Of a DNA stretch of 57,721 bases, positions 2,340 through 46,510 are shown one piece after another. Position numbers and translations under genes: made by a program. Location of the stretch: sequence record SRR31156797_17267. One strand, written 5' to 3'. Position 1 is the first letter of the stretch. Each line of letters begins with the position of its first letter. Under the pieces are notes generated by a model that did no database searches, was not told the DNA's origin, and saw only the letters and a list, made by a program, of their open reading frames with translations.

Positions 2340-4216
2340 TGTGCGGTATAGCTGGCTTTGTACGCTTTTGCGGCGAAAATAAAACATCGGACACCAAATA
2401 CTTAGAAGAAATGGTGCAAACTCTCCATCACAGGGGGCCAGATGAAAAAGGTTTAGCAATACACCACGGTGTAGCAATGGGAATGCGACGCCTGGCAATC
2501 ATAGACCTCAGTGGTGGGACTCAGCCTATTTACAACGAGGACAAAAGCATCTGGACTGTTTTTAACGGTGAATTATATAATTTTCCACAGTTAAAAAAAG
2601 AACTTCAGCAGTATGGGCATATTTTTCGTACCGATAGTGACACCGAAGTAATTGTTCATGGATACGAGCAGTGGGGAGCTGATTTTGTAAAACGCCTTAA
2701 CGGTATGTTTGCTATTGCCCTGCACGACATGAATAAAAAATGTTTCATTCTAGCACGCGACCACCTTGGAATAAAACCCCTCTATTTCTCCTTTCAAAAA
2801 GACCGATTATTGTTTGGATCGGAAATTAAGGCATTACTTACTACGCCCTGGGCTCAACGGTCTCTCAACATGGAAGCTCTTGCAGAGTTTCTGGCATGGG
2901 AATACATTCCAGGTAAAGCTACTCTCTTTAAGGATATCAAAAAGCTTCTGCCGGGGCAGTTGCTTCACATAAACCTGAATGCACCCCAATGTTCCCCAAA
3001 AAGTTTTTGGGACATTCCTCTTTCTTCTCCTACCTCACCATCTCTTTCTGAACATGAGTGGGAAGAAAAGATTTTCGCCCAAATTCAAGCATCCACCCGG
3101 ATGCAAATGATCAGCGATGTCCCGCTTGGTGCCTTTTTATCAGGTGGTGTCGATTCCTCACTCATTGCCGCATGTATGGGAAAAGTCCAAACATTCAGTA
3201 TTGGATTTGATGATCCCACATACAACGAACTTACGTGGGCAAGAAAAGTCGCAGACCATATAGGCGTTGAACATAGGGACGAAATAATCCGCCCTGACAT
3301 TGTCAGCCTTTTTGATCAACTGATGCACTTTATGGATGACCCTATTGGTGATTTCTCTATTTTCCCGACCTTTCTCGTCTCTCAGCTTGCGAGACGTCAT
3401 GTAACGGTTGCCTTGAGTGGTGACGGTGGAGATGAGCTTTTTGCAGGGTATGAAAGCTACCTCGCTCAAGAAAAAGCCCGCATGTACCAGCGAATCCCTT
3501 CCTGGATGCGCCAAGGCCTTATGGAACCTATTATTTCCAGCCTAAAACCAAGCCCTCAAAAAAAAGGCTTGGTAAACAAAGCCAAAAGATTCATTGAAGG
3601 CGCAGCCTACCCTGAATCCCTCTCTCATGCTAGATGGCGACTTTTTGTCAGCGACACCCTAAGGGAAAATCTACTTTCTCCTGATGTTCTCCAACAGGTG
3701 AAAAATCCTGCGGCGCACCATATTGAACAACTGTTTCAACAGGCTGGCAACAGGGGAGAACTTGACCAAAGTCTCTATGTTGATGTCAAGAGCTACCTCA
3801 GTGACAATATCCTTACAAAAGTAGACCGTATGTCCATGGCTGTCAGCTTGGAAACCAGGGTCCCCTTACTGGACAAAGACCTTGTCGAGCTCGCCTTCCA
3901 AGTACCTGAAAAATACAAACTTTCAGGAAACGAGACTAAATCTATATTGAAAAAAGTTGCCAGTCGATTAGTACCTAAAGAATGTATCTATCGCCCCAAA
4001 GAAGGCTTTTCGATTCCTATAAAGCATTGGCTGAATACTGAGTTCAAGCCATTAATGGACGAACACCTCAATAAACAATCAATTGACCAAGGTGGCATTT
4101 TCCAATGGCCGACAATTAAACGTCTCAAACAGGAGCACAGCTCCGGACAAGCCAACCACAGTCATATTCTCTGGGCACTTATCGTTTTCCACGACTGGAA
4201 CAAACGTTGGTGTTGA
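2339..4216 (+). CDS. asnB: Asparagine synthase (glutamine-hydrolysing) family amidotransferase, probably for polysaccharide amidation
   Basis: N-terminal MCGIAG Ntn cysteine, HRGPD, RRLAIID, LSGGVDSS, SGDGGDELF, DRMSMAVSLETRVP. Confidence 0.93.
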   Translation: MCGIAGFVRFCGENKTSDTKYLEEMVQTLHHRGPDEKGLAIHHGVAMGMRRLAIIDLSGGTQPIYNEDKSIWTVFNGELYNFPQLKKELQQYGHIFRTDSDTEVIVHGYEQWGADFVKRLNGMFAIALHDMNKKCFILARDHLGIKPLYFSFQKDRLLFGSEIKALLTTPWAQRSLNMEALAEFLAWEYIPGKATLFKDIKKLLPGQLLHINLNAPQCSPKSFWDIPLSSPTSPSLSEHEWEEKIFAQIQASTRMQMISDVPLGAFLSGGVDSSLIAACMGKVQTFSIGFDDPTYNELTWARKVADHIGVEHRDEIIRPDIVSLFDQLMHFMDDPIGDFSIFPTFLVSQLARRHVTVALSGDGGDELFAGYESYLAQEKARMYQRIPSWMRQGLMEPIISSLKPSPQKKGLVNKAKRFIEGAAYPESLSHARWRLFVSDTLRENLLSPDVLQQVKNPAAHHIEQLFQQAGNRGELDQSLYVDVKSYLSDNILTKVDRMSMAVSLETRVPLLDKDLVELAFQVPEKYKLSGNETKSILKKVASRLVPKECIYRPKEGFSIPIKHWLNTEFKPLMDEHLNKQSIDQGGIFQWPTIKRLKQEHSSGQANHSHILWALIVFHDWNKRWC

Positions 4217-14526: not shown

Positions 14527-15837
14527 TTATCCAGTTAATTGCCGTATACTTACTTCAGAATCGAGATCAAAGATACCGATGCTGGATTTTGCAGACACCA
14601 CCTCAAAAGTAATAACATCATAACGCCGATCGTAAACAACATACTCACCCTCTTCGAATCCAGCGCAACCAAATGAAAGCAGGTACCCTCCAGGATTGAG
14701 CATCATACGATGTTCGAACTCGGTGAGAATGATATCACCCTTGTGAACCGTTCCAATTTCTTTTTCCTTGTACAATGTGTTGGTGCCGCACAGGTCAAAC
14801 CCTTTGACATCTTTTATAGTATAAGCGGTGATCGGGTTAACCACTGTTTCATGGAACAAAGTCTTGAACCAGAAACGATACCGCTCACCATGGGTAAACG
14901 TATGAGACCCTTTTTCTGACAAGGAATCGACTCCAACCTCAATGATTTCCGCCCGTCCATTACCGTAACGATTTTCTTCAGGATTGAGCTGATATCTACG
15001 TTCTGAGTTGCGCATGTGTGAGGCAACTTTTTTTCGGGGCTCATCTTTTTCGATGTCGTCCTGGTCAGCAAAGCAGTTTACAACCATACGGTTATATTCA
15101 TCGACCACCTCTTTTGCGTCTCCGGATTTAACAAGCCTCCCCTTTTCGAGCAAGAAGGCCTTGTTACAATACCTGGTAACCAGATCCATCGAATGGGTTA
15201 CAAATAATATTGTCACGCCTTTTTCTTGAAACTCTCTAAACTTAGCGAAACATTTGGCCTGGAACTGCGTATCCCCGACGGAAAGTGCTTCATCAACAAT
15301 AAGAATACTTGGGTTCACATTAATGGCAACGGCAAAGGCCAACCTTATATACATTCCGCTGGAATAACTTTTCACAGGCTGGTCAATAAATTCTCCTATA
15401 TCTGCAAAGGATGCAATATCAGCAAAACACGCTTCAACCTCGCTGCGACTCATTCCAAGAATAGAACCATTAAGAAACACATTCTCCCTGCCAGAAAACT
15501 CTGGGTTGAACCCGGCCCCAAGTTCAAGCAGTGCAGATATTCTACCATCAACCTGTATTTTACCTTCTGTAGGCTGGAGAATACTGCAAATTATTTGCAA
15601 GAGTGTGGATTTTCCGGACCCGTTACGTCCGATAATACCGACTGTTTCCCCTTTGTGAATATCAAGAGAGACATTCTGCAAGGCATAAAACGGTGTATGA
15701 TAATTCTTTTCCCCAAAGCCCCAAAGGAGATCCTTAATCCGATCAAGCTGACGACTATACAGCCGAAATTTCTTACTTACGTCTTCAAGGGAGATAACAG
15801 GCAATGTATTATTGTGCATTTTAATAGCCCTCACCAC
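14527..15837 (-). CDS. wzt: Polysaccharide ABC transporter ATP-binding protein with C-terminal carbohydrate-binding domain
   Basis: GRNGSGKST, LLELGAGFNPE, YSSGMYIRLAFA, DEALSVGD, C-terminal RYGNGRAEI...GTNT extension. Confidence 0.93.
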   Translation of the reverse strand: MVRAIKMHNNTLPVISLEDVSKKFRLYSRQLDRIKDLLWGFGEKNYHTPFYALQNVSLDIHKGETVGIIGRNGSGKSTLLQIICSILQPTEGKIQVDGRISALLELGAGFNPEFSGRENVFLNGSILGMSRSEVEACFADIASFADIGEFIDQPVKSYSSGMYIRLAFAVAINVNPSILIVDEALSVGDTQFQAKCFAKFREFQEKGVTILFVTHSMDLVTRYCNKAFLLEKGRLVKSGDAKEVVDEYNRMVVNCFADQDDIEKDEPRKKVASHMRNSERRYQLNPEENRYGNGRAEIIEVGVDSLSEKGSHTFTHGERYRFWFKTLFHETVVNPITAYTIKDVKGFDLCGTNTLYKEKEIGTVHKGDIILTEFEHRMMLNPGGYLLSFGCAGFEEGEYVVYDRRYDVITFEVVSAKSSIGIFDLDSEVSIRQLTG

Positions 15838-15840
15838 CCG

Positions 15841-16656
15841 TTACAAAACATCGGCAAATTGGGGTTTCAATCGTAAAAAAATCATAGTGCCACAGATAAA
15901 AATGACGATCGTAAACAACCAGAAATAAGCAGTCTGCACAGGATGGTGCCAAAACGGTATCCCATAAATAAATGAATCCCGATATCCCTGAACTACATAA
16001 TATACGGGGTTTAATTTGAGTAACTTCTGAATAGTAGCCGGCATCATGTTGATATCCCAAAATATTGGTGTAGCCCAAAATCCGATTTGTATTAAAACAT
16101 TTACCAAATGCGCTATATCACGGACAAAAACATTCAAAGATGCCAGAATCAATGCTATTCCGATGGATAGAAACCACAAACAAAAAAGATAATATGCTCC
16201 CTGAAAGAAAAATAGAGAGAAAGGGATTCCCTGAAAAAATAAAAGAAAAAACAAAATAACAAGAAAAAATAAATGGGAAACAAAGCCGGAAATGATTTTA
16301 ACAACAGGAAGTATTTCAGATGGAAATAGAGTTTTTTTCACTAGGTTGGCATGGGTTATAATGGCTGATGCCGATCCAACAATCACATCTGAGAAATAGA
16401 ACCATGGTGACATACCCGCTGTCAGCCAGACAACAAAAGGGACATCGCCCAAAGGCTTTACTCTAAATCCAACACTAAAAATAAACCAAAAAACAAAGAT
16501 CATTATAAGGGGATGAATAAAAGCCCAGAATATCCCTAGAAGCGACCCTGCATACAAGGTCTTAACTTCTCGCTGTGCCAATGATCCAATCAATTGCCTT
16601 TGGGTAGCAATACTTTTAATAAACTTGAGACAGTATAAAAATAGGTGAGAACTCAT
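15841..16656 (-). CDS. wzm: Polysaccharide ABC transporter permease
   Basis: YAGSLLGIFWAFIHP, NLVKKTLFP, WATPIFW, LNPVYY, FADVL end. Confidence 0.93.
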   Translation of the reverse strand: MSSHLFLYCLKFIKSIATQRQLIGSLAQREVKTLYAGSLLGIFWAFIHPLIMIFVFWFIFSVGFRVKPLGDVPFVVWLTAGMSPWFYFSDVIVGSASAIITHANLVKKTLFPSEILPVVKIISGFVSHLFFLVILFFLLFFQGIPFSLFFFQGAYYLFCLWFLSIGIALILASLNVFVRDIAHLVNVLIQIGFWATPIFWDINMMPATIQKLLKLNPVYYVVQGYRDSFIYGIPFWHHPVQTAYFWLFTIVIFICGTMIFLRLKPQFADVL

Positions 16657-19101: not shown

Positions 19102-20229
19102 CTATCTCCAACAACCACGGATCACACCTACAACACGTGCCAATTCGTCTTCAGTCATGTTGGTTCCTGATGGCAGGCAAAGACCGTATGTAAAAAGTTG
19201 CTCAGAAACTGAACCGCCTACTACCTGAGCCCCTTTAAATAAAGGCTGCATGTGCATAGGCTTCCAGGTAGGGCGTGATTCAATATTGTTTTTCTCAAGC
19301 TCCCTGATCACCTCGTCTCGATTAACGCCCGCCTGGTCAGGATCAATAGTCAGGCAGGTAAGCCAACGAGTAGAACAAGCAAAATCAGGTTCAGGCATAA
19401 ATGCAACCCCAGGCAAGTCGCCCAGACTTTCCCGATACTCTGTAAATATTTTTCTTTTTCCTGCAACCCGCTCAGGTAGTACCCGCAACTGCCCGCGACC
19501 GATGGCTGCCAGTATATTACTCATCCGGTAGTTATACCCAATTTCGGTATGCTCATAGTGCACCGCATTATCTCTGGCCTGAGTTGACCAAAACTTAACC
19601 TTCTTAGCCAATTCTTCATTATCAGTGACTATCATTCCACCACCGGAAGTGGTGATAATCTTGTTGCCGTTAAACGAATAAAATCCTGCCAGACCAATGG
19701 TCCCTGGTGCCTTCCCCTTGTATTTTGCCCCCAAGGCCTCTGCTGCATCTTCGATCAACACCACCTGATACTGGTCACAGACCTCTTTTATGGGATCGAT
19801 ATCAGCAGGCTGGCCGTAGAGGTGAACAAGCACCACTGCCTTGGGCAGACGACTTACTTTTGCCCGCTGTTCAAAAGCCTTGGCCAAGAGTAAGGGGTCC
19901 ATATTCCAACTGGGATATTCTGAATCTATAAAAACAGGAGTTGCCCCGCAATATAAAATGGGATTAGCACTGGCCACAAACGTAAAATCGGAGCAGAAGA
20001 CATCGTCCCCTACCCCCACCCCAACATACTTTAATAAAAGATGAAGAGCAGCGGTCCCAGCCGAGACTCCTACAGCAAACTTCGCGCCAACTGTTTCCGC
20101 AAACTCGCACTCAAAAGCGTCAATTTGGGGACCAACGGGTGCGATATAATTAGAAGCAAAGGCCTCACTTATAAAGTCAATCTCCTCGCCCCCCATATGA
20201 GGGGCTGATAGAAAAATACGCTTATTCAC
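19102..20229 (-). CDS. DegT/DnrJ/EryC1/StrS PLP aminotransferase (PglE-like)
   Basis: RIFLSAPHMG, EDAAEALG, SFNGNKIITTSGGGM, GYNYRMSN; GTG start at 20229 after an AGGAG RBS. Confidence 0.92.
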   Translation of the reverse strand: MNKRIFLSAPHMGGEEIDFISEAFASNYIAPVGPQIDAFECEFAETVGAKFAVGVSAGTAALHLLLKYVGVGVGDDVFCSDFTFVASANPILYCGATPVFIDSEYPSWNMDPLLLAKAFEQRAKVSRLPKAVVLVHLYGQPADIDPIKEVCDQYQVVLIEDAAEALGAKYKGKAPGTIGLAGFYSFNGNKIITTSGGGMIVTDNEELAKKVKFWSTQARDNAVHYEHTEIGYNYRMSNILAAIGRGQLRVLPERVAGKRKIFTEYRESLGDLPGVAFMPEPDFACSTRWLTCLTIDPDQAGVNRDEVIRELEKNNIESRPTWKPMHMQPLFKGAQVVGGSVSEQLFTYGLCLPSGTNMTEDELARVVGVIRGCWR

Positions 20230-20260
20230 TTTGAAAATTCTCCTGAATCCAAATCTGTGG

Positions 20261-20668
20261 TCAAGGCAAGATATTCTTAACAACCTTCGCTGGCACGCCT
20301 AAAGCCACGCAATTTTTGGGGATATCACCAATCACTAAACTATGAGCTCCAATAATGGAATTTTCACCAATGGTCACTCCTGGCATCACAGTGGAATGGG
20401 AACCGACTTTACAATTATTTTTCAGAACAACCTTGCCCTGTTTGTTGTCAATGGTTGACACGGAATAAATCGAACAATGTGACCCTACTTGTACATTATC
20501 TTCTAGGGCCACCCCAAAAGCAGCATTGATATAGGTAAAAGCACCGATATCTGTTCTATAGCCCAATTCCAAGCCACTGGAATGCTGAACCAACCAATGG
20601 TACTTGGTTAAAACACCGTCTTCAATTTCCGGATATTGCCAATTTTCAAACCTTGTCTGTTCAGGCAT
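20261..20668 (-). CDS. Hexapeptide-repeat acyltransferase
   Basis: LbH repeats [23 protein letters not shown] and GVPAKVVK. Confidence 0.88.
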
Positions 20669-21263
20669 CCCGTTTCGTTCCCATAAATTTTTCCATTGTT
20701 GCCTGCCCTTGTTGATTGATGTCTTCCCTTTTCAAGGTTTTACAAACCGTCAAAAAAAGTATTTTAACATCCAGCCATAGAGTCTGGTTATCCACATACC
20801 ATACATCCAGTTTAAACTTCTCCTCCCAAGCAAGAATATTACGCCCATTAACTTGCGCCCATCCTGTAATGCCAGGTCGAACTTGATGCCGTCGAGCCTG
20901 TTCAGGGGTGTACCTACCGAGGTATTCTACCAATAGAGGACGTGGTCCAACCAGACTCATATCACCTTTCAAAACGTTAATTAATGCAGGCAATTCATCA
21001 AGACTGGTGCTCCTTAAAAGTCGCCCAAAGGGTGTAAGCCTATAACTATCTGGTAGCAGATTACCCGCTGTGTCTCTCTCATCGGTCATAGTTCGGAACT
21101 TGTACATCCGAAAAATTCGACCATGTAAGCCGGGGCGTTCCTGGACAAAGAGGACAGGGCGTCCAAGTTTCACCCGTACCAAAATTGAGGTCATAATGAT
21201 AATAGGCAAAGCAACCACTATGCCCGGAAGGGTAAGAAAATAATCAAAAAGGCGTTTAAGCAT
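20661..21263 (-). CDS. Phosphoglycosyltransferase (PglC-type sugar transferase)
   Basis: [40 protein letters not shown]. Confidence 0.93.
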
Positions 21264-22950: not shown

Positions 22951-24474
22951 TCAAAATCTTTCAACAATTTTCTTTTTAACAGCAACAACTACTTCTTCCA
23001 CTTCATCGATTCTCATAAAAATGAGCAAAGTAAAATAACTAAAAGCGCCAAAAACAACTGACAAAAATAGGGCAAAAGTACTATTGGCAGAAATGGACAC
23101 CAAATAATCATTTCCAAATTTAGCAATCAACCCCATACATACCGAAGCTGATGATATTTTGGCTATACTTTTCACAAACTGGTTATCTCCAAACAATCCA
23201 ACCTTACGCCTTAACCCAACAAATAATAAACCCGTGGTAACTAAAGCCGAAATGCTAGTAGCAAGTGCCAAACCACATATACCTAAATATTTCGATAAAA
23301 TAAGATTTAAGATAACATTTAAAAACATCCCAATAACAGCATTGATCATAGGGGTTTTAGTATCCTGCATGGAATAAAAAGCTCCAGACAAAACTTCTCT
23401 CAGACCATACCCTACCATCCCAATAGAATAAAAAACTAATACATTTGCGGTTAAAACAACAGCATCAGTACCGAACGCCCCCCTACCGAAAAGCAAATCT
23501 ACTATAGGTGTAGAAAATATAATTGTGCCGACAGTCACGGGGAGTACAAGTAAAACAATTCCAATTATTGATTTAGATAAGTTACTTTTTAGCCCCTCAA
23601 GATTATTATCAGATGCCATTTTTGAGATCTGAGGAAACAATACCGTTGCTATGGCAAGAGAAAATGTCCCATGAATAAAAAGATTTAATTTATTAGCATA
23701 TACTAAGGCTGATATCCCACCTTCCAGAATATTAGAAGCAAGTGTTCTATCGACAAGCTTATTGATTTGATTAACAGATGTGCCTATCATTACGGGCAAA
23801 GAAAGCATCATCATTTTCACTATGTATTTATCTTTTATATTTATTGATATTTTAAACCGATAGCCATTTTTATACATAAAAAATGACAAGAGTAACATTT
23901 GAGAAAAAACAGCAGCAACTTGCCCTACTGCAAGTATTTCAAAACTCCCTTTTGATGCCAAGACAATAGATATAATTATAATTATGTTTAACGGTATTCC
24001 AATTAACCCAGGCACAATAAAATTTCTATTAACCTGTAAAAAAGCCTCATAAATATAATTTATCGCTGTAAAATAAATAGCGACTATAGTTAACTTCGTT
24101 AACTGAACAGCTAAAAATAGTGTTTCCCCAGAAAATCCAGAAGCAAACAACTTAACTATTTGCGTTGTAAAGCCCAAGACTACCAATACAATAAGAGTAC
24201 AAATAGCCATTAGGCAAAAAAGAACATGATCAGTAAAACTATTGCCTGCACTAACACCATCATTATTAATAATATCAGTAAACAACGGTATGTAAGTGGT
24301 TTTGACGGCAACACCCACAAATGAAAAAATAACCATCGGTATAGTTAAAGATATTAGATAAGCATCACTAACGCTAGAGGCCCCGAAAAAATAAGCCAGA
24401 GTAATCTCTCGCCCGAAGCCTATCATCTTTGACACAACGCCAAATATCATCAACAAGAACACTGTTTTTTTCAT
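22951..24474 (-). CDS. murJ: MurJ/MviN-family MOP flippase in a polysaccharide locus
   Basis: SKMIGFGREITLAYFFGAS...DAY, VDRTLAS, LFGRGAFG, FYSMQDTKTP. Confidence 0.85.
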   Translation of the reverse strand: MKKTVFLLMIFGVVSKMIGFGREITLAYFFGASSVSDAYLISLTIPMVIFSFVGVAVKTTYIPLFTDIINNDGVSAGNSFTDHVLFCLMAICTLIVLVVLGFTTQIVKLFASGFSGETLFLAVQLTKLTIVAIYFTAINYIYEAFLQVNRNFIVPGLIGIPLNIIIIISIVLASKGSFEILAVGQVAAVFSQMLLLSFFMYKNGYRFKISINIKDKYIVKMMMLSLPVMIGTSVNQINKLVDRTLASNILEGGISALVYANKLNLFIHGTFSLAIATVLFPQISKMASDNNLEGLKSNLSKSIIGIVLLVLPVTVGTIIFSTPIVDLLFGRGAFGTDAVVLTANVLVFYSIGMVGYGLREVLSGAFYSMQDTKTPMINAVIGMFLNVILNLILSKYLGICGLALATSISALVTTGLLFVGLRRKVGLFGDNQFVKSIAKISSASVCMGLIAKFGNDYLVSISANSTFALFLSVVFGAFSYFTLLIFMRIDEVEEVVVAVKKKIVERF

Positions 24475-29863: not shown

Positions 29864-31126
29864 TCAACGCCACATCCCTCTCATATCAATTACAATTTTT
29901 TCCTTAAGAAGATCGTGATCAACCTGTTTAAACTCATCATGGTCTACCAATCCCACCACAATATCCGCCTGTTCCATAGCTGTTTCGATATCTACCCGGT
30001 GGGTAAAAATGCTTTCTTGCAAAGCAGCAGGCAATTCGTTGACATGTGGCTCGACGACCAAAAGATCCCCTACTTGCTCTAAAACAAGCTGCTGAACTAT
30101 CTGCAGAGCTGGACTCTCTCGCAAATCATCAATATTTGCCTTAAAGGCCAAACCTAAACAGGCAATCTTGGGGTTCTTGAATCTTTCAGCCTTTGCCTTG
30201 ATCTTTTGCAGGACATAATTTGGTTTACTGTCATTCACTTCCCGAGCCGTGCGCATTAGTCTTGCTTGTTCAGGCGCTGAATCTATTATAAACCATGGGT
30301 CGACAGCAATACAATGGCCACCAACTCCAGGACCTGGTTGCAGAATATTCACCCTGGGGTGACGGTTAGATAGTTCTATCATCTCCCAAACATTGACGTG
30401 CAATCCTTCACAAACCATGGAAAGTTCATTGGCAAAGGCAATATTTACATCGCGATATGCATTTTCTGTCAGTTTACTCAGTTCTGCGGTTCTGGAATTA
30501 GTTGTTAAACATTCGCCCTTTACAAAAATTTTGTACAATTTGATGGCTGCTTGCGAACAACCTGGAGTCATCCCGCCAATAATTCGATCATTGCTTACCA
30601 GTTCCTGGATCACATGACCAGGCAGGACACGTTCTGGGCAATGAGCAATGCATATATCGACATTATTTCCTTGCTGATGAGGAAAAATAAGATCTGGACG
30701 TTGTTCAGCCAGCCAACCAGAAAGCTTTTCTGTTGTCCCCACAGGGCTTGTGGATTCAAGGATAACGAGATTGCCTCGTTCCAACACAGGAGCAATGGCT
30801 TTTGCCGCAGCTTCGATGCAGCTGAGATCTGGCTTATGATTGTCTGTGAATGGAGTAGGCACCGCGATCAAGAAGGCATCTGCAGCTTCAGGTACGGTAG
30901 TGGCTCTAAGCTGACCAGTTTGAACTGCACTCCGAACCACGATATCCAAATCTGGTTCGACAATATGAATTTTACCCTGATTTATCGTATCAACAGCCTG
31001 CTGGTTGATATCAACGCCAACAACTTCAACCCCTCTGGAGGCCATAATTGCAGCAGTAGGGAGCCCGATATACCCGAGCCCAATCATGCAAATCTTTTTG
31101 AAGTGTTGTGAAGAAAGAACTGCCAT
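29864..31126 (-). CDS. wecC: UDP-N-acetyl-D-mannosamine dehydrogenase
   Basis: GLGYIGLPTA, AVPTPF, ESTSPVGTT, HCPERVLPG, GPGVGGHCIAVDPWF, GLAFKANIDDLRESP. Confidence 0.95.
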   Translation of the reverse strand: MAVLSSQHFKKICMIGLGYIGLPTAAIMASRGVEVVGVDINQQAVDTINQGKIHIVEPDLDIVVRSAVQTGQLRATTVPEAADAFLIAVPTPFTDNHKPDLSCIEAAAKAIAPVLERGNLVILESTSPVGTTEKLSGWLAEQRPDLIFPHQQGNNVDICIAHCPERVLPGHVIQELVSNDRIIGGMTPGCSQAAIKLYKIFVKGECLTTNSRTAELSKLTENAYRDVNIAFANELSMVCEGLHVNVWEMIELSNRHPRVNILQPGPGVGGHCIAVDPWFIIDSAPEQARLMRTAREVNDSKPNYVLQKIKAKAERFKNPKIACLGLAFKANIDDLRESPALQIVQQLVLEQVGDLLVVEPHVNELPAALQESIFTHRVDIETAMEQADIVVGLVDHDEFKQVDHDLLKEKIVIDMRGMWR

Positions 31127-31130
31127 TATT

Positions 31131-32270
31131 TTACTCCGTACTTAATTTTTCCGACAACAAATCTTCAACAATTCGTTGACAGGCATTGCCATCTCCATAG
31201 GGGTTATGGGCAAAGCTAATTTTGTTATAATGCTCTTGATCGTCTAATAACCGCTGAGCAGCTGTAACGATCGCCTCCTGACTGGACCCTACCAATTGAA
31301 CGGTGCCTGCTGTTACAGCTTCAGGACGTTCAGTGGTATCTCGCATGACCAGTACCGGTTTCCCCAGAGATGGTGCCTCTTCTTGGATCCCCCCTGAATC
31401 GGTAATAATAATGCTCGATTGACGCATAAGATACATAAAAGGCAGATAACCAACAGGGGCAATCAAATGAACATTAGGATGATTACCTAAAATACGTTGC
31501 ACTGGTTCCTGAACATTGGGGTTGAGGTGCACAGGATAGACGACCTGAACATCGCCTCGTTTTGCAAGTTGCAGCAGGGCATGGCAAATATTCTCAAAGC
31601 CCTGACCAAAACTCTCTCGTCGATGACCGGTTACCAGGATGGTTTGCTGCCCCTTGTCGAGAAACAGGAATTGCCCAGCGGCTTCCTGCTGAAGTTTTTT
31701 GTTTCTCTCCAGCTGATTATCAACCCACAGCAAGGCGTCTATAACCGTATTGCCAGTGATTAATATACGGCTTTCTGATACGCCCTCTCTCAGAAGGTTG
31801 TCTGCCGCCCAGGCGGTTGGAGCATAGTGACGATCAGCAATAGCGCCTGTGAGTTTTCGGTTGATTTCCTCAGGCCAAGGTGCGTAAATATCACCGGTCC
31901 GCAGTCCTGCTTCCACATGACCTACAGGAATACGAGCATAATAGGCGGCAAGGCTCGCTGCCAGAGTTGTGGTCGTATCGCCATGCACTAGAATTCGATC
32001 GGGTCTACAACTGCTGAGCACATCGCCAAGGCCCCTCAAAACATTACAGGTAACATCTGTCAGATTCTGGCCAGGTTTCATAATGTCGAGATCAAAATCA
32101 GGGCTGATTTGAAAAAGCTCAAGAACCTGATCAAGCATTTCTCTGTGCTGGGCAGTAACGCAGAGATACGATGTAACTCCAGGTTCAGCAGCCAGTCTTC
32201 GCACAAGTGGTGCCATTTTGATAGCTTCCGGGCGAGTGCCGAAAACTGTAAGTATTTTCAATTTTTCCAT
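31131..32270 (-). CDS. wecB: UDP-N-acetylglucosamine 2-epimerase (non-hydrolysing)
   Basis: [49 protein letters not shown]. Confidence 0.95.
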
Positions 32271-34489: not shown

Positions 34490-36595
34490 TTACTGGCGAC
34501 TCTTATTAAAAATTGCCCCAAGCAGCCTCCCTCCTACATTGGCCAAAGACCTTTTGAACTGCTTTACTCCGTCGCGCGGAGTTTCACCTTCTACAGCAAC
34601 AAGAATCAAACCATCAACCATAGTCGAAAGAGCCAAAATCTCGGCAGCGCCCTGGTAAGCAGGTCCATCTAGGATGACCACGTCATAATCTTTAGCGACA
34701 GTTCGTAATAATTGATCCATGCGTTTGGAAGAGAGTAACTCTCCAGGGTTTGATGGAAGAGGTCCACTATTGATAAAATCTAGCCTGGGATAACCAGTCG
34801 GAGTAATAATATCTGACAGTTCAGCCTTCCCAGTGAGAAGAGAGGATAGCCCTGGTCCTGCTGTGGCATCCTGGCCTGGTGATTGAAGATCACTCTTTCT
34901 TAAATTTACATCTATCAGCAAACATTTCTCATTTTCCAACAAAAAAGATAAGCCACAGTTGCTAGCTAACGAACTTTTACCTGCCCCCGGCAGGATACTT
35001 GTCAAAAGAATGGTTTTGGGAGAGGTGGTTACCACTGAAAAACGAATCGAAGTCATTATTATGCTAAAAGCCGTCGCCAAAAGAGATCGTGGTTCACTGA
35101 TCGCTTTTTCGACCAAGTGCTTAGGATTATTAACGGCCTCTTTGCAATAAGGTATAAAACCAAGAACGAGGATACCAAAACGATCTGTCATTTCATCAGA
35201 TTTCTTTATAGTATTATCAAAAAAATCAAAAAGAAATGCTGCACAGAGTCCACCAATTAATCCCAAGACCAGTCCTAGAAATACATTAAGCGCAACTCGT
35301 GGTTTGATAGGCTTGAGAGGTGATCTAGCAATATCAAGAATCTCTATACTGGTAACCGGGGCATCAAAGGTCACCTTTATTTTTTCTAAGCGTAACTGGA
35401 GGCTCTCAAGAACAGCTACACCTTGTTTCACCTGATTTTCGAAAACTATATATTGAGCTGTTAGTTCGTCCAAAGTAACTGCTATAATTTTCAATTGCTC
35501 AATTTTGGCAAGCAAAGTATTTTCAATTTCCAATGAGGCCTTATAAGATTTGCTGGCAGAGTCAATCCCCGCGCCTTTATCAGAAGGTGCCTGGCCAACA
35601 GTTTCATCTCGATATAATAAGCCATCTTTATCGCCAAAGGTAAATTGTAAACTGCTGTTGCCTAGAGCCCCCCTGCTTGATCGTATCCGAGCAAGCTCCT
35701 GATTTAACGTCTCAAGTTGAGAAGCAACAAGGTTCTGCTTGAAAGTAATTAGAAGTATACCGTTTTCTTGGGCGAATTTTTGCAGACCCTTTTCCGATTC
35801 TGAAAGCTTGAGCTGAAACCCTTCAAGCTTGAACTGAGCCAGTTCAATCTTTTTTTCCAGAAACTCGATAGCAACGAGAGAAGCCTTCTGATTACTCTCC
35901 ATTTGCAAGCTAACTAACTCCTCCATCACCATGTTAGTCATCTCTGCAGCCAGGCCAGGAGAAGATGCCTTAAAAAACACTTCTATAAATTTACTTTTGC
36001 GCACTGGTTTAGCAGCGAGCATGCTATGAAAGTGACCTATTGACTGATTAACTAAAATCTTTTTCTGTGCTTCATCGCTTAGAGAATTTAACGTGGATGT
36101 ATTCCCTGCAATTCCAACAAAAGATTTTAAACCACCAAGAAGCTTTTTCATCTGTGAAGCTATGGAACCAGCATCTTCTTTCCTATTGAAGATGGAGTTA
36201 CTTGTTAACTCCAGATGACTTATAACTCTAAGAGCAAGTTTGTCTGTCTTCAACAGCTTTATTATGTTCTGCTGGAGCTCTGCAGTCGTCAACATACCAT
36301 TTACGCCGACATTGGTGACAGGAGGAGAAACCTGAAGTACACCTTTTGCTTTATACTGTGGCGTAGCCATGAAAATATAAAGTGAAACGGCAATCAAACA
36401 GAACAACAAACAAGTTATAATTATAGATTTTCGCCGCACGACCACATTGAACAAATATCGCAGATCGACTTCATCCTCAAATTGAGGTGCAACCTGATAT
36501 TGCATTTCTGTACCTTGTGGATTTTCTACTCTCTGTTCACGCGTAACTATTTGCTGTTCCACTTTCTGACAATTGTCTTTAGATTGATGTATCAT
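34490..36595 (-). CDS. wzc: Wzc/GumC-like polysaccharide co-polymerase with degenerate tyrosine kinase domain
   Basis: EVDLR, TM, coiled coil, PIKPR TM2, Walker A SILPGAGKS, SGPLPSNPGELL; no C-terminal Tyr cluster. Confidence 0.8.
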   Translation of the reverse strand: MIHQSKDNCQKVEQQIVTREQRVENPQGTEMQYQVAPQFEDEVDLRYLFNVVVRRKSIIITCLLFCLIAVSLYIFMATPQYKAKGVLQVSPPVTNVGVNGMLTTAELQQNIIKLLKTDKLALRVISHLELTSNSIFNRKEDAGSIASQMKKLLGGLKSFVGIAGNTSTLNSLSDEAQKKILVNQSIGHFHSMLAAKPVRKSKFIEVFFKASSPGLAAEMTNMVMEELVSLQMESNQKASLVAIEFLEKKIELAQFKLEGFQLKLSESEKGLQKFAQENGILLITFKQNLVASQLETLNQELARIRSSRGALGNSSLQFTFGDKDGLLYRDETVGQAPSDKGAGIDSASKSYKASLEIENTLLAKIEQLKIIAVTLDELTAQYIVFENQVKQGVAVLESLQLRLEKIKVTFDAPVTSIEILDIARSPLKPIKPRVALNVFLGLVLGLIGGLCAAFLFDFFDNTIKKSDEMTDRFGILVLGFIPYCKEAVNNPKHLVEKAISEPRSLLATAFSIIMTSIRFSVVTTSPKTILLTSILPGAGKSSLASNCGLSFLLENEKCLLIDVNLRKSDLQSPGQDATAGPGLSSLLTGKAELSDIITPTGYPRLDFINSGPLPSNPGELLSSKRMDQLLRTVAKDYDVVILDGPAYQGAAEILALSTMVDGLILVAVEGETPRDGVKQFKRSLANVGGRLLGAIFNKSRQ

Positions 36596-40886: not shown

Positions 40887-43877
40887 TCAGCTCCCCTCTT
40901 CTGTCAAAAAACCAATAGCTTCTGATGTTGTCCCATCAACCTTCAGAGTAAATCTATCATTAAACCGTACATGACAAATATAGATTCCCTCTATAACCAA
41001 TTCCTGCTTTTTCAGCACTTCCCAATCGATATGCTCGCTCTCTTTATCATCATCCTCGGGTATTTTTGACTGTTCACTGGTCACCATGAGGTAGGGGATA
41101 TCCAGCGAAGTAATATTTTGAAAAAAATGAGACCCTTGCGAGGGTTCTGCATTTACGCTGGAATCCTGCACCTCAATGATAGCAGCTACACCAGAAATAT
41201 CATGCCATTGAACGGGAATTCCAAGCCAGGGATCTGCAGTCCCCCATCTTCCTGGCCCAACAAGCAGATATGGTCTCCCCTCCTTATGCAGTTTCCGGTT
41301 GAGCTGTCCGATTTCCTCAGCAATCTTCTGGGTAGACGCCCGATCAAAACATTCCGGTTTCACATACAGTACATCGTCTATCGCCTCGTAAACGCCGTGT
41401 CCAAGGGAGCGGACCGAAGCCATGATTGCCCGCTCGCGATCGGCAGGCAATATACGGGTCTGCTGTTTTTCCATTCCCGTAACGATGGGTCGCACCTGCA
41501 GAAAATACAACTCACTTTTTTGTGGTTCCTGATACAGATCAACGGCAAACTCCACCTCAACCTCACACCCCATGCCCTCCCGAGCAACAGCGACTAACTC
41601 AGCTAGCAGTTCCGGCAGGGGATAAACATCATATTTTAAGACAGGGGCAAAAGTCAGTACCTTATAACCAGGAATATCAGTATCACGGATACGGTTTTCC
41701 TGACTGCTGTAAGTCGAACAAAGTAAACGAACGGGATATTCAGTAACAGCATCACTTAACTCGCGACAAACAAGATTACTGTTAGCGCTTTTAAGAGTGC
41801 TGTCTTCTCTACAATCCAAGGCGTAAAAATGACGCTGACTGTTCTTCAAGATATCTTCCACCGTGGAAAATTGGGGAAGATACTCTGGATATTTCGGAGA
41901 AACACGGAGACTACTCTCCCCTTCGACCACGGTTTTACCAAACCCCAGGGCCAGGTGAGCAATGCCCTCCTCCGCCTCCATCTTGCCCACCGGGTAGTAA
42001 TTATAGGACTGCACCACCCCAGCGATGGCAGGATAATAAAAGTCTCCCTGCCGGCACCCCACTACCTGCTGGACAATTACGCCCATGGAATCTTCCTGGG
42101 TTTGGCCGATAGAATGGGAAAAAGCCCGAGGTGCCTCAAACCAGGTGGAAGCATAGACCAGCTTGACAGCATCTATGAGCTGCGACAGGCGAAGCTCAAA
42201 AGAGGGATGTGTATTGGCTAACATAAAGGTACTATACAGTCCCGCATATGGTCTAAACTGTGCATCCTCGAGCATACTGGATGACCGTACTGAAATGGGG
42301 AAGGACACCTCTTGCAGATAGGCCTTTAAGTCCTTAAATAGCCACTCCGGTAAGTCAGCATTGAGAAATCGGTTGGCAATGGACTCATCTGGCTCACCAT
42401 CGATGGGCTTCAAAAGATTTTGATGGATAAAATCATCAAAACCAACATCAGCAATTACACAGGTCTGTGGAATCTTCACCTTGTAGGCTGACAAGGTCGC
42501 TTTACTTTTTTCCACATGATGGAGCATTGAAGACATAAAGGCAATCCCCCGTGCCTTCCCCCCCATTGACCCCCTGCCAATACGAACAAAATCAGTGATA
42601 ATAGGGTCAAAGCGTTCCCGATTAAACTGTGTCACAACTCCCTGCTGTCTCACCTTACGCAAAGCATGCACCTTGGATAAAATATCTTCCCGCAACTGCT
42701 CATCATCAGTCATCTGCGAAAAATGGTGTTTATGGAGTCTGGCTGCCAGTGCCACCTCCGCCCGCGCCATTACCCAGTTAAAAAAATGGTTGTGTTCTGC
42801 ATGATAACGAATCGACTCCAGCGGTATTTCTCTCAACTGATTTTCAAATTCGTACAAACTCGAAACCCGACCCACCTGGGTTAAATCCGGCAGTCGAAAA
42901 ACAAAGTCACCAAACCCAAGATAGCGAAGAAAAAAGTCATGAATTTGCTCCTCAATATCTAGAGCATTTTTATCAACAAAAACAGCAGGTATCCTATCAA
43001 CCACGTCCTCATTTTTAGGGTCAGTGCTCAGCATAAGAAGAGGTAGATCTTTTTTCTCCTCTCTAATTTCCTGAAGCAACCTGTATCCCGAATCATCATG
43101 CAATTCACCCGAACGCGGAAAACGGGCATCAGACATGACGGCAAACACATACGGCTTATAGCGGTAAAAAATATCCAGTGCTTCTTCATAGGTGGCAGCA
43201 GTCAGTATCTTTGGTCGAGCGCGCATCTTAAGCAAACGATGCTGCTCGTTGAGCCCTTCCCCAAGTACTGATTGGGTTTGCTTAACTAGCTCACCATAAA
43301 GTAACGGCAGGAGACGAGAACGATATACAGGTGAGTCCTCCACCAGAAGAATAACCCTGACCATTGCTTTTTCAGTATCAAAATCAACATTTTGCTGATC
43401 TTCCACATTCTTGACAATGGCCAGTAAAATATCGGAATCGCAACACCAGACATAGCTATTGTCTATACAACTGAAAGGATCACCTTGTGGGCCAATCACG
43501 ACATCACGATTGGTGTGAGAAAGGAGAACGATTGGTATCTTACGATTCTGCTTTTTAACTTGGGAACTAAAGGTACATCCATCCATTCCTCCAAGATGGG
43601 GCATGGTTACCACCAGGTCAAACTCTCTCTCTGCCAAGGCAGCCATTGCCTCCTCGCTGGTCGCCACCCTGGTGATGCGAGGCGGCTGACTCAGATTATG
43701 GCCAAAATATTCATTGATGATTCGAGAGGCCAGGCTGCCGTCTTCTTCCATAATATAGGCATCATACGGACTGGAAACGAGGAGAATCTCACGCACTTTA
43801 TAGCGCATAAGCTCGTGAAAAATCTTAAAGTGGGGATCATAGCCAAAGGCTCTTGAATACGGCTGAACACCAGTCAT
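40887..43877 (-). CDS. Receiver-domain / PEP-synthase-type nucleotide-binding domain protein
   Basis: Two REC-like regions (ILLVSSPYD, ILLVEDSP), GGKARG, VRSSSMLED...AGLYST, MGVIVQQVVG, GFGKTVVEG, LQVRPI, GPGRWGT, PSQGSHFFQN. Confidence 0.85.
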   Translation of the reverse strand: MTGVQPYSRAFGYDPHFKIFHELMRYKVREILLVSSPYDAYIMEEDGSLASRIINEYFGHNLSQPPRITRVATSEEAMAALAEREFDLVVTMPHLGGMDGCTFSSQVKKQNRKIPIVLLSHTNRDVVIGPQGDPFSCIDNSYVWCCDSDILLAIVKNVEDQQNVDFDTEKAMVRVILLVEDSPVYRSRLLPLLYGELVKQTQSVLGEGLNEQHRLLKMRARPKILTAATYEEALDIFYRYKPYVFAVMSDARFPRSGELHDDSGYRLLQEIREEKKDLPLLMLSTDPKNEDVVDRIPAVFVDKNALDIEEQIHDFFLRYLGFGDFVFRLPDLTQVGRVSSLYEFENQLREIPLESIRYHAEHNHFFNWVMARAEVALAARLHKHHFSQMTDDEQLREDILSKVHALRKVRQQGVVTQFNRERFDPIITDFVRIGRGSMGGKARGIAFMSSMLHHVEKSKATLSAYKVKIPQTCVIADVGFDDFIHQNLLKPIDGEPDESIANRFLNADLPEWLFKDLKAYLQEVSFPISVRSSSMLEDAQFRPYAGLYSTFMLANTHPSFELRLSQLIDAVKLVYASTWFEAPRAFSHSIGQTQEDSMGVIVQQVVGCRQGDFYYPAIAGVVQSYNYYPVGKMEAEEGIAHLALGFGKTVVEGESSLRVSPKYPEYLPQFSTVEDILKNSQRHFYALDCREDSTLKSANSNLVCRELSDAVTEYPVRLLCSTYSSQENRIRDTDIPGYKVLTFAPVLKYDVYPLPELLAELVAVAREGMGCEVEVEFAVDLYQEPQKSELYFLQVRPIVTGMEKQQTRILPADRERAIMASVRSLGHGVYEAIDDVLYVKPECFDRASTQKIAEEIGQLNRKLHKEGRPYLLVGPGRWGTADPWLGIPVQWHDISGVAAIIEVQDSSVNAEPSQGSHFFQNITSLDIPYLMVTSEQSKIPEDDDKESEHIDWEVLKKQELVIEGIYICHVRFNDRFTLKVDGTTSEAIGFLTEEGS

Positions 43878-44272
43878 GGGGCACCAGGAAATGTGAGAGT
43901 ACAGAACATATATAACACCCTATCCTATCCAGCTTTATTTACAAAAATTTTACCAAAGAGAGTGAGGATATCCATCTAGAATAAAAACTCTGCATAATCA
44001 TGATAAACCCTTCCTTGCCCAACAACAAATAAACTTTACATTTCAACCACATTGAAGGATAATATCTTTATTATAAACAGTAATACTCAAACCATTTTCA
44101 GCCAAGCAGTTAACAACTAAGAAACATACTCATCAGCTAGTTAACGCGTTATCACTCTCATACCGTATCTTCCAAGCACCCCTGTTACCCGGGCTATCAA
44201 AACGGATTGCAAGGTCAGTGGATGGAAATATGCACCATACCTTTTAGTTACAACTACAAAAAAGGAGGGATT

Positions 44273-45484
44273 ATGAAGTTAACCGTTCTACAGAAGGTCG
44301 GCATTATCATACTGTCGATGCTCATCAGCACATTCTCAATGGCCAATGCCAAGGAGGCCAAGAGCATTGATGAGCTTGTTTCCATGTTTGATGACAAAAA
44401 ATGCGCCGAGTGTCACGAACAGATCTACAGCGAATGGAAGGGTTCTTGGCATGCGAAAGCTATCAACTCGTCGCTGAAGGGAATGCGAAATTTTATTGCT
44501 GTAGGTTTGGCTAAGGAATGGAACACCCCCCTCACCAAGGCGGAAGTCCTCAAGTGTCTCGATTGCCATGCTCCGGCCGTCAACTATGCATCCGAAGAAC
44601 TGGCAGTAGAAATCGGCAACCTCATTGTCACCGCCTTTGAAAAAAAAGGCTTCTCAGAAGGATCTCAAGCGGCAGAGGAACTGGCTAAGCTCAATGTCGG
44701 CTGTTACTCCTGCCACAACATCAAGGCCACAGGCACTGCCCCGGGCCTGCGGGGCAAACCCAAAAAAGGTGTTATCTACGGCCCCAACGGAGAAGACGGG
44801 GATGATTTCCACGAATCCATTGAATCTGCTGAGATATCAACATCTGCCTTCTGCATGCAGTGCCATGGTGTCTACCATGCTCCTGATGGAGAAACCATCC
44901 AATGTAACACCTTATCAGGAAGCTATCGTCACGGCTACCTTGCCGCCGGCGGCAGCAAGACATGTCAGGAATGCCACCTTAACAAAGGGCACCTGTTCCC
45001 CGGTGGCCACGATCTAGACACAGTCAAAGAAGGATTGGGCTTTAACCTCGAAATTGCCCAATACAACCACCTCCCTGGTCAAATTGAAGGGGTTAAGAAC
45101 CCGAAGGAATGGGTCCCCAGCGCTGTGATTACCGCCTTTATTGAAAACAAGGCAGGGCATCGCGTCCCTGATGGCTGACTGTGGTCAGGCAAAGTGGTCC
45201 TGGAAGTGACCGCAAAAGATGCAGAAGACAACGAACTGTTCAAAAAAGAGAAAAAGTGGTTTGAAATCGGGATTGATCCGGACAGGGACATGCGCTATGG
45301 GGCATGGCAAATCAAGGAAATTATCGACCTGACTCTCCCCCCGCTACAGACCCAGCGTGAGCAGTACCTGGTTCATTTTGATACCGATACGGACCAAGTG
45401 ACCATCACTGCAAAGCTTTGGTATTACGTGAGCGGCGGCAATGGTGAGATTGTATATGAGGAGACACAGACCCTTGAGTATTAG
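44273..45484 (+). CDS. Pentaheme cytochrome c selenoprotein (ExtKL/MccSep-like), Sec encoded by in-frame TGA 45176-45178
   Basis: RBS AGGAGG then ATG 44273; signal peptide; five CxxCH motifs; AGHRVPDG-TGA-LWSGKVVLEV continues in frame into ORF 45194-45484; SECIS-like hairpin downstream. Confidence 0.88.
45194..45213 (+). other. Bacterial SECIS-like hairpin
   Basis: GTGGTC-CT-GGA-AG-T-GACCGC; the stem starts 15 nt after the UGA, with a G-initiated apical loop about 23 nt downstream. Confidence 0.65.
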
Positions 45485-45559
45485 TACAGCTTAGAAGTCG
45501 TTATTTCCCTTTAACGCTTTCGCAAACCTTGCAGGTGAAGAAGAACACCCTATTCTTTT

Positions 45560-46510
45560 TCACCTGTACCTCTCAAGATCACACGGCGTGTTTATGTTGC
45601 GCCAACACCTGCGAAGCGCCTTTGGAGGTTGCGCCGTAAACACTCCTAGCACTCCCTGCAACCGGTTGATCTGTAAGGAACCAGCCGTCACGATGTCCTC
45701 CACAGCCCTTCGGCAGCGATAATCATAATAGGCAAGAAGCGGTTCAACCCTTCCATTGCCCTCAAGATCAGCCAAGATTGCATGCCTACCAATGTATCGA
45801 TGGCTCAGCAGCCACTGTAAAGCCTGCTCATTCATCTCCGGTAAATCACAGGCTACAACCAGCCATGACACCTCTGGTTGGTATCGCAAAGCAGCGAGTA
45901 TGCCCGCAATAGGTCCCGCCAAGCCCTCTATATCATCGATTCGATCAAGTTCGCCCAGAGAATCAGGCAACTCCCCTGCTCCTGAGATAACCACATTCTC
46001 GACCCGGTGCTGCAAAACTTCCACTGTCCGTTCCACCCAAGTTTTACCTTGATGACAGATCAGGTGCTTTGCCCGTCCCATACGACGACTCTTGCCGCCA
46101 ACCAAGACACATCCCCAAACAGGTGCATCAAGCCACCGGTCACTTAACCAGTTGACAACTTTCTCAACAGCACTACCACAAGCAAGCTCCCCTAGGTCAA
46201 CCGTGAACAACTGCCCCGGGTTACCACCACCGGTCTCACTCAACCATAAATGATTAAACGTAACAGGGAACTGACTCTCTATTAGTACAGCATCATACTG
46301 TTGACACAATACATGTAACTGGCGAATAATTTTTTCTGTGATCGGCTCCTGCAGCTTGAACACAGCACAGGAAACCTGCAGGGTCTCACATTTTTCCAGC
46401 ACCCCGGCAATAAAAGTCGCCCGGAGAGCTATTTCTCCACCGCAGACCCCCAAAAGTGGTAAAGTTCGAAGCGGCAGTAGCTTGGCAGACGCCAGTTTTT
46501 TTTCCAGCAC
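45560..46510 (-). CDS. mobA: Molybdenum cofactor guanylyltransferase with N-terminal extension
   Basis: VLVGGKSRRMGRAK, GPIAGI, VVACDLP, EPLLAYY, NINTP. Confidence 0.85.
   Translation of the reverse strand: MLEKKLASAKLLPLRTLPLLGVCGGEIALRATFIAGVLEKCETLQVSCAVFKLQEPITEKIIRQLHVLCQQYDAVLIESQFPVTFNHLWLSETGGGNPGQLFTVDLGELACGSAVEKVVNWLSDRWLDAPVWGCVLVGGKSRRMGRAKHLICHQGKTWVERTVEVLQHRVENVVISGAGELPDSLGELDRIDDIEGLAGPIAGILAALRYQPEVSWLVVACDLPEMNEQALQWLLSHRYIGRHAILADLEGNGRVEPLLAYYDYRCRRAVEDIVTAGSLQINRLQGVLGVFTAQPPKALRRCWRNINTPCDLERYR

Follow-up and report, generated by a model that had tools for sequence, protein, structure and literature searches.

A clade-3 gene of the ExtKL/MccSep family with an in-frame TGA, predicted to encode a selenocysteine-containing pentaheme cytochrome, in a Desulfogranum-like member of the Desulfobulbaceae

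Results and discussion

A gene probably read through an in-frame TGA

The 57,721-nt stretch of DNA analysed here (sequence record SRR31156797_17267, hereafter the window) belongs to a Desulfogranum-like member of the Desulfobulbaceae and carries, at bp 44273–45484, a gene predicted from comparative evidence to encode a selenocysteine (Sec)-containing pentaheme cytochrome belonging to clade 3 of the ExtKL/MccSep family. With a probability that we put at about 0.88, this is one gene in which UGA is read as Sec and whose product is a periplasmic pentaheme clade-3 ExtKL/MccSep protein acting on polysulfide or selenite. The gene is real and was correctly recognised in a preliminary description made from the sequence alone, yet the literature and the NCBI model library already covered the family with its five clades, its Sec site and SECIS-like element, and orthologs from the same genus. 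The organism would accordingly be counted among the carriers of a recently described family of selenium- and heme-dependent polysulfide reductases; standard gene prediction truncates this enzyme at the UGA, and the locus is useful both for annotation and for the reading of sulfur metabolism.

Translation with TGA as U (Sec) gave a single frame from the ATG at bp 44273 to the TAG at bp 45482–45484, comprising 403 codons on the + strand (the strand of all features below unless otherwise indicated), in which the sole in-frame TGA was codon 302 (bp 45176–45178). This TGA closes the ORF at bp 44207–45178, and five sense codons (CTG TGG TCA GGC AAA) lie between it and the ORF at bp 45194–45484, which shares the frame. 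Direct reading and translation thus bore out the preliminary description, which had proposed two same-frame ORFs split by a TGA plus five sense codons and, from the ATG at bp 44273, a product of 403 residues with five CxxCH motifs, a Cys in IQCNTL and the sequence GHRVPDG-U302, all of which were found. The heme motifs, as placed by translation and alignment, were CAECH (heme 1, residues 44–48, bp 44402–44416), CLDCH (heme 2, residues 95–99, bp 44555–44569), CYSCH (heme 3, residues 144–148, bp 44702–44716), CMQCH (heme 4, residues 194–198, bp 44852–44866) and CQECH (heme 5, residues 231–235, bp 44963–44977). The N-terminus read MKLTVLQKVGIIILSMLISTFSMANA followed by KE, and by eye it had a basic n-region, a hydrophobic core and ANA before the presumed cut; the signal peptide that had been claimed is therefore placed, as a probable Sec-type (export) signal, at residues 1–26 (bp 44273–44350). 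Predicted strands and fold matches indicated a C-terminal beta-sandwich (Ig-like) domain at bp 45035–45481, in which the putative Sec loop would be carried.

A Shine-Dalgarno sequence, AGGAGG (bp 44263–44268), was located 4 bases 5′ of the ATG and was conserved in the two nearest related loci, those of a Desulfobulbus sp. assembly (L001) and of Desulfogranum marinum DSM 2058 (L002). Farther upstream, a tentative promoter-like site (TTTACA-17-GATAAT, bp 44035–44063) had 10 of 12 matches, and GGATAATAT from this region was unchanged in all five aligned upstream regions; in the promoter scan, the number of promoter-like sites in the region equalled that in shuffled sequences. A sigma-54-type promoter considered at about bp 44218–44233 was dropped, the first GG being lost in both L001 and L002. 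Downstream, a 16-bp hairpin at bp 45530–45568, to which no strand was assigned, lies between the convergent cytochrome and mobA-like genes as a possible terminator (−29.4 kcal/mol for the folded 91-nt stretch). It was not called by the terminator scan, in which, as for promoters, sites were no commoner than in shuffles. When further TGA-interrupted frames were sought across the window, solely shadows and consecutive genes were encountered.

Membership in the ExtKL/MccSep family

The read-through protein scored 442.3 bits (cut-off, 250) against the NCBIfam equivalog model NF040886, "multiheme c-type cytochrome (seleno)protein ExtKL", with residues 18–395 lying on profile positions 22–411 of 423, so that the match spans the TGA; from Pfam, generic multiheme domains alone were obtained. 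Among the sequences of solved structures, the best match was MccSep of Geobacter sulfurreducens (9wt8/9wt9, E 1e-40, residues 23–372), in which U302 fell on U325 and Cys211 of IQCNTL (bp 44903–44905) on C239, the distal ligand of heme 2. In an alignment of 27 sequences, the Cys and His residues of all heme motifs were invariant, as were Cys211 and His99; the latter corresponds to H122 of MccSep, and heme 2 would by homology be the active-site heme, a role described in PMC13510729. These matches, together with the conserved TGA and the hairpin treated below, upheld the proposed identification as a Sec pentaheme cytochrome of the ExtKL/MccSep type.

In Geobacter, MccSep occurs in the periplasm as a homotetramer, each subunit of which carries five hemes and one Sec (PMC13510729, Sci Adv 2026). 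The Sec was demonstrated by mass spectrometry, and neither U325 nor the heme-2 ligand C239 is dispensable; the enzyme reduces polysulfide and, more weakly, selenite, its loss crippling growth on elemental sulfur (PMC13510729). The same study collected 637 homologs falling into five clades, chiefly from Desulfobacterota and Nitrospirota, 97% of which were predicted to be periplasmic. The background given in the preliminary description on the Geobacter ext cluster and on MccSep agreed with PMC5877670 and PMC13510729.

Compared with MccSep (ExtKL, GSU2937-2936 of G. sulfurreducens PCA), the window protein shares the five CxxCH motifs, the Cys predicted as distal heme-2 ligand (C239 and C211, respectively), the Sec position in AGHxxPDG-U (U325 and U302, respectively), a signal peptide (probable for the window protein), a helical heme cap followed by an Ig-like C-terminal domain, and, no more than 40 nt from the UGA, a SECIS-like hairpin; the published tryptic peptide AGHSIPDGU (PMC13510729) has AGHRVPDGU as its counterpart. 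However, the two proteins are distant in sequence and belong to different clades, and the motif following Sec is PTPNR in MccSep but LWSGK in the window protein. Another pentaheme protein, cytochrome c552 of Thermochromatium tepidum (5ze8), matched in sequence over residues 17–102 (E 9e-10), i.e., the first heme region alone, and no Sec site was seen in it.

In the portion of the PMC13510729 supplement available, the D. marinum protein (WP_394713409.1) is entered as "Sec (DB)", clade 3 and periplasmic, with 33 bases from the TGA identical to those of the window, and the rows of D. japonicum, D. mediterraneum and Electrothrix with ULWSGK are likewise clade 3, those of the two Desulfogranum species being entered as Sec as well. 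The exact peptide string of the window gave 0 matches in that portion, which fits a different species. The clade-3 homologs of D. marinum, D. japonicum and D. mediterraneum and that of L001 are orthologs sharing the genomic position of the window gene, and the window represents another species than L001 and D. marinum. ExtKL/NF040886 is also listed in a 2026 review of prokaryotic selenoproteomes (PMC13188914). The gene, which had been called hidden, is so for gene callers, by which the 120 best database matches are stopped at the TGA, but not for curated sources such as the part of the supplement just cited.

Evidence that the UGA is read as Sec

Thirty related loci were found, with amino acid identities down to 41%. 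The nearest were L001 (97%), D. marinum (92%) and D. japonicum (76%), and the farther ones were from Electrothrix (six loci of which carry the gene), Desulfocapsaceae, Thermodesulfatator and Nitrospirota. All 30 had TGA at the Sec site: a script detected exactly one in-frame TGA, after PDG, in 29 of them, and the remaining locus, the fragment L029, was read by eye as GAT GGC TGA CTG TGG. Five CxxCH motifs were present in each of the 29 full-length loci. Alignment of homologs at position 302, the check that had been suggested for this site, thus gave an unbroken column of TGA, in which U302 of the window corresponds to U325 of MccSep. The comparative evidence for read-through of this UGA as Sec is strong.

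Were the TGA a true stop, the product would be a 301-residue pentaheme cytochrome, and bp 45194–45484 would be a separate small gene or untranslated. Gene callers do end the protein in this way, since the best 120 of the 255 database proteins with E 1e-10 or better were 292–339 residues long, covered at most 75% of the query and ended at the TGA (two of the 120 listed bearing the name ExtKL), and the GTG at bp 45194 could act as a start. However, no ribosome-binding site was present 5′ of bp 45194, and the frame ran on uninterrupted through the 101 codons after the TGA in every one of the 29 full-length loci. These codons were conserved to the same degree as the 275 mature codons upstream, with identities to the window after versus before the TGA of 98.0 versus 96.4% in L001, 91.1 versus 93.8% in L002 and 37.6 versus 45.6% in L028. 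Moreover, both the NF040886 profile and the MccSep crystal structure span the site, and in Geobacter the read-through product was detected by Western blot and mass spectrometry (PMC13510729). Termination as the sole outcome is hence very improbable, and a minor truncated by-product may be formed beside the read-through protein. Three further explanations, namely a pseudogene, an error of sequencing and a code with TGA for Trp or Gly, have nothing but the in-frame TGA in their favour, whereas all 30 independent assemblies have TGA at this codon, the relatives possess the machinery for Sec, and TGA is an ordinary stop in the window, where it terminates 10 of the 35 annotated genes. These possibilities are refuted as far as sequence can show.

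The Sec machinery was searched for in the genomes of four relatives (G001 to G004, containing loci L001, L002, L024 and L017, respectively). In all four, selA, selB and selD each scored above the curated cut-off, with selA of G001 interrupted by a contig end; selD in these genomes itself carries one in-frame TGA. A tRNA-Sec scored above the gathering score in three of the four and was missed in G001, an incomplete assembly of 3.3 Mb.

A SECIS-like hairpin downstream of the UGA

The SECIS-type hairpin that had been proposed at bp 45194–45213 was found, with a 6-bp stem formed by GUGGUC (bp 45194–45199) and GACCGC (bp 45208–45213) around an 8-nt loop. Its minimum-energy form had two extra pairs, a bulged U and a GGA loop 27–29 nt from the U of the UGA. 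In bacteria, the apical loop of a SECIS element is rich in G and lies 16–37 nt from the UGA, and a bulged U is often present. In the selD genes of G001 and G002, an 8-bp hairpin presented a GGA loop 24–26 nt from the U of the UGA. Taken alone, the window hairpin was weak: the 66-nt stretch had a z of −1.8, and 11 of 200 shuffles folded as well.

Comparison with relatives lifted the hairpin above chance, by pairing and by codon entropy. Among 26 sequences (the window and 25 loci, omitting the repeats L001, L006, L015 and L016 and the fragment L029), 98.1% of the cells for the six proposed pairs were standard-paired, versus 20–65% when the 3′ partners were slid. Covariation was thin, consisting of one compensatory change from G-C to A-U and one G-U, with 20 of 500 shuffles reaching the score, because the element hardly varies. 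At synonymous sites (27 sequences; L006, L023, L026 and L029 omitted), normalised codon entropy was 0.05 in the five conserved columns among hairpin codons 308–314 versus 0.79 in 169 others (Mann-Whitney p 9e-5), Val309 being GTC in 27 of 27 sequences and Leu310 CTG in 25 of 25. Such suppressed synonymous change is what would be expected of an RNA element overlapping a coding sequence. Rfam gave no match at the gathering threshold over the whole window, and a permissive scan of bp 45120–45280 gave chance matches to snoRNA and lncRNA models alone.

Genomic context

Upstream of the cytochrome gene and divergent from it are a gene for a 996-residue response-regulator/PPDK_N fusion and then glutamate dehydrogenase, while the genes downstream, in convergent orientation, are a MobA-like gene, two of the futalosine pathway (for an MqnA-like protein and for futalosine hydrolase, MqnB) and, after these, queA. 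Genes for cytochromes, porins or rhodaneses were absent among the annotated neighbours in the window. The order regulator-PPDK / cytochrome / mobA-mqn was kept in L001, L002, L003 and L024, with nucleotide identities over the shared region of 87.7% to L001 and about 82.5% to D. marinum. For 19 further loci, the two nearest ORFs of at least 90 residues on each side were collected, giving 70 proteins, which were searched against Pfam (E 1e-6); the eleven loci omitted were the four syntenic with the window and seven that were short or near-duplicates. None of the 70 matched a cytochrome c or rhodanese family, 46 matched varied housekeeping, transport and regulatory families, and 24 were without matches. 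It was also noticed that a Porin_4 gene lay just upstream in L008, a TonB-dependent receptor gene in L011 and a DsrE-like gene in L028.

The extHIJKLMNOPQS cluster of Geobacter, which includes rhodanese-like, porin-like, multiheme, Rieske and cytochrome b genes, is absent around the window gene; this arrangement is conserved in Geobacteraceae (PMC5877670). The cluster is thus a feature of that family of bacteria and not of the protein family, and the window host is a member of the Desulfobulbaceae, not Geobacter. The clade-1 copy of D. marinum is isolated as well, adjoining a divergent gene for a LysR-type regulator and the TrkAH and cytochrome bd genes. Because of the synteny, the survey of 19 loci and the restriction of the ext cluster to Geobacteraceae, isolation is, as judged from the loci compared, the usual state of clade 3 and no peculiarity of the window locus. 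The preliminary description was consequently right in that the gene stands alone, but not in regarding this as unusual, the same being seen in the four syntenic loci, the 19 others and the clade-1 paralog of D. marinum. Even in Geobacter, the electron donor of MccSep was called unidentified (PMC13510729).

Structure model and residues around Sec

An AlphaFold2 model built from a 19-row alignment was of moderate quality (pLDDT 70.6, pTM 0.66), with helices predicted as far as residue 254 and eight strands over residues 255–402. The pLDDT fell below 50 around residues 297–304 and 342–354 and was low in the loops meant to contact the hemes and to carry Sec. In a Foldseek search of a PDB copy ending 2026-04-08, the best match was the T. 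tepidum cytochrome c552 mentioned above (5ze8, E 2e-10), for which the fit was poor (TM 0.33, rmsd 14 A); the C-terminal part matched Ig-like sandwich domains of the kind seen in ApaG and glycosidases, and MccSep 9wt8 was absent among the matches from that copy. MccSep has a cap-and-stem architecture with an Ig-like stem (PMC13510729). The predicted fold agrees with this architecture and adds little beyond the sequence match.

Examination of the aligned sequences revealed Cys211, His99, Arg297, Trp304, Lys307, Lys348 and the block GAWQIKEIIDL to be invariant in the clade-3 set. R83 and K372 are supporting residues of the MccSep active site, and R83 binds substrate. In the alignment R83 fell on Lys69, a position occupied by K in 18 of the 27 sequences and by G in the other 9. 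K372 aligned to Ile347, and the neighbouring Lys348 was the invariant residue, so that the counterpart may be offset by one position. The substrate pocket of clade 3 may therefore differ from that of MccSep.

Proposed function

By analogy with the Geobacter enzyme, the mRNA of bp 44273–45484 would be translated through the UGA at bp 45176–45178 as Sec, with the hairpin at bp 45194–45213 recruiting SelB with Sec-tRNA(Sec). The product would then be exported to the periplasm and loaded with five c-type hemes, where Sec would attack polysulfide at a chalcogen-chalcogen bond, or selenite; the resulting Sec-Se-S-S-Cys intermediate would be reduced by electrons passing through the heme chain from a periplasmic donor, and sulfide would be released. 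We infer Sec insertion in this host, export, heme loading, tetramer formation and the substrate from such comparisons, polysulfide reduction being extended to the window protein from the assayed clade 1 by way of the conserved Cys/Sec/heme-2 core. In a Desulfobulbaceae host, the enzyme would more probably serve polysulfide turnover in sulfur reduction or disproportionation than Geobacter-style respiration.

It is also conceivable, though unlikely, that the clade-3 enzyme is decoded with Sec as described and has a physiological substrate or direction other than that of the Geobacter clade-1 polysulfide reductase, for example 1) a step of sulfur disproportionation, 2) the oxidation of sulfide or polysulfide, or 3) the conversion of another chalcogen compound. 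Such a role would accord with the distribution of paralogs, as G001 and G002 each had two TGA-containing NF040886 genes, one clade-1-like with the UPTPNR type (570 and 566 bits, respectively) and one orthologous to that of the window (441 and 438 bits, respectively), and D. japonicum and Electrothrix sp. YB6 (G004) had one each, the latter being of the clade-3 type alone. When a genome retains two paralogs together, their roles usually differ. The residues particular to clade 3 around Sec (R297, W304, K307 and K348) and the unconserved counterpart of R83 point the same way, as do the carriers in Desulfocapsaceae, Thermodesulfatator, Electrothrix and Nitrospirota, many of which are sulfur disproportionators or sulfide oxidisers. 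However, the Cys211/Sec302 pair and the heme-2 motif are strictly kept, which would indicate the same chemistry, and the five clades are treated as one family (PMC13510729). The more specific suggestion that clade-3 MccSep is a functionally distinct Sec/heme enzyme of a Desulfobulbales-type sulfur cycle is more doubtful still; it is allowed by the pocket residues of its own, the lack of a conserved R83 counterpart, the clade-1 paralog alongside and the sole copy in a cable bacterium. If it were true, the enzyme could be responsible for the polysulfide step of sulfur disproportionation in the periplasm, or could run oxidatively and pass electrons from sulfide or polysulfide to the periplasmic cytochrome pool.

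Whether clade 3 has a role other than that of the assayed clade 1 is a question of the clade and not of this locus, notably in the disproportionating and cable-forming Desulfobulbaceae. A term search of a paper on sulfur genes in cable bacteria (PMC13047784) gave no occurrence of selenocysteine, multiheme or pentaheme, and no literature joining sulfur disproportionation, multiheme and selenocysteine was found. For the preferred reading, that of a Sec-dependent periplasmic enzyme acting on polysulfide or selenite, the molybdopterin polysulfide reductase PsrABC offers a comparison, since the same reaction, from periplasmic polysulfide to sulfide, is proposed for both (PMC13510729); being unrelated, membrane-anchored and equipped with Mo-bisMGD and Fe-S cofactors, PsrABC is an analogue and not a relative.

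Regions flanking the cytochrome gene

The sequence GGATAATAT was located at 44056-44064, about 210 nt 5' of the ATG of the selenocysteine-containing cytochrome gene (44273-45484, plus strand), at the same place as the -10 box of a promoter-like site (44035-44063, plus strand). Alignment revealed that GGATAATAT was invariant in all five upstream regions compared, including those of D. japonicum and the related locus L003, in which the leader had diverged outside this sequence.

Divergent from the cytochrome gene, a gene at 40887-43877 (minus strand) encoded a protein of 996 residues in which a response-regulator receiver was fused to a PPDK_N (ATP-grasp) domain. A receiver-PPDK_N fusion gene also adjoined the cytochrome gene in four related loci (L001-L003 and L024), and in the Electrothrix locus L017 the fusion, with 59% identity, was situated 3.5 kb away from it. 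This linkage may reflect nothing beyond shared ancestry. Also in the window, positions 324-36595 comprised a large PEP-CTERM/XrtA-type exopolysaccharide locus. Among its genes were those for an amidotransferase at 2339-4216 and a Wzm/Wzt-like ABC exporter at 14527-16656, followed at 19102-21263 by genes for an aminotransferase, an acetyltransferase and a priming transferase. The locus further included genes for a MurJ-like flippase (22951-24474) and for WecB/WecC (29864-32270), as well as one for a chain-length determinant of the tyrosine-kinase type (34490-36595).

On the other side, a convergent gene at 45560-46510 (minus strand) encoded a MobA-like guanylyltransferase, in which some 130 N-terminal residues had no family match; the start of this ORF may have been called too early. 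Between the two convergent genes lay a 16-bp hairpin (45530-45568) that overlapped the mobA stop codon and was not called by the terminator scan.

Related selenoprotein genes in other genomes

Both nearest relatives carried a second ExtKL/MccSep gene, which was clade-1-like (L035 in genome G001; L036/L043 in G002, Desulfogranum marinum), each having its own TGA and being of the UPTPNR type. The D. marinum paralog was likewise monocistronic and was adjoined by a divergent gene for a LysR-family regulator, which scored 174 bits against the model for selenium-metabolism-associated LysR proteins (cut-off, 250 bits). The clade-3 gene, with its TGA conserved, was present in cable-bacteria genomes at six Electrothrix loci (L013-L017 and L022). 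A term search of a 2026 paper on sulfur-metabolism genes of cable bacteria (PMC13047784) returned none of the words selenocysteine, multiheme and pentaheme.

The selD genes of the two nearest relatives (L047 in G001 and L046 in G002) were also selenoprotein genes, with the sequence AAG-U-AAKLGPGDL, and each contained a GC-rich 8-bp hairpin with a GGA loop, at a distance from the UGA similar to that of the cytochrome hairpin.
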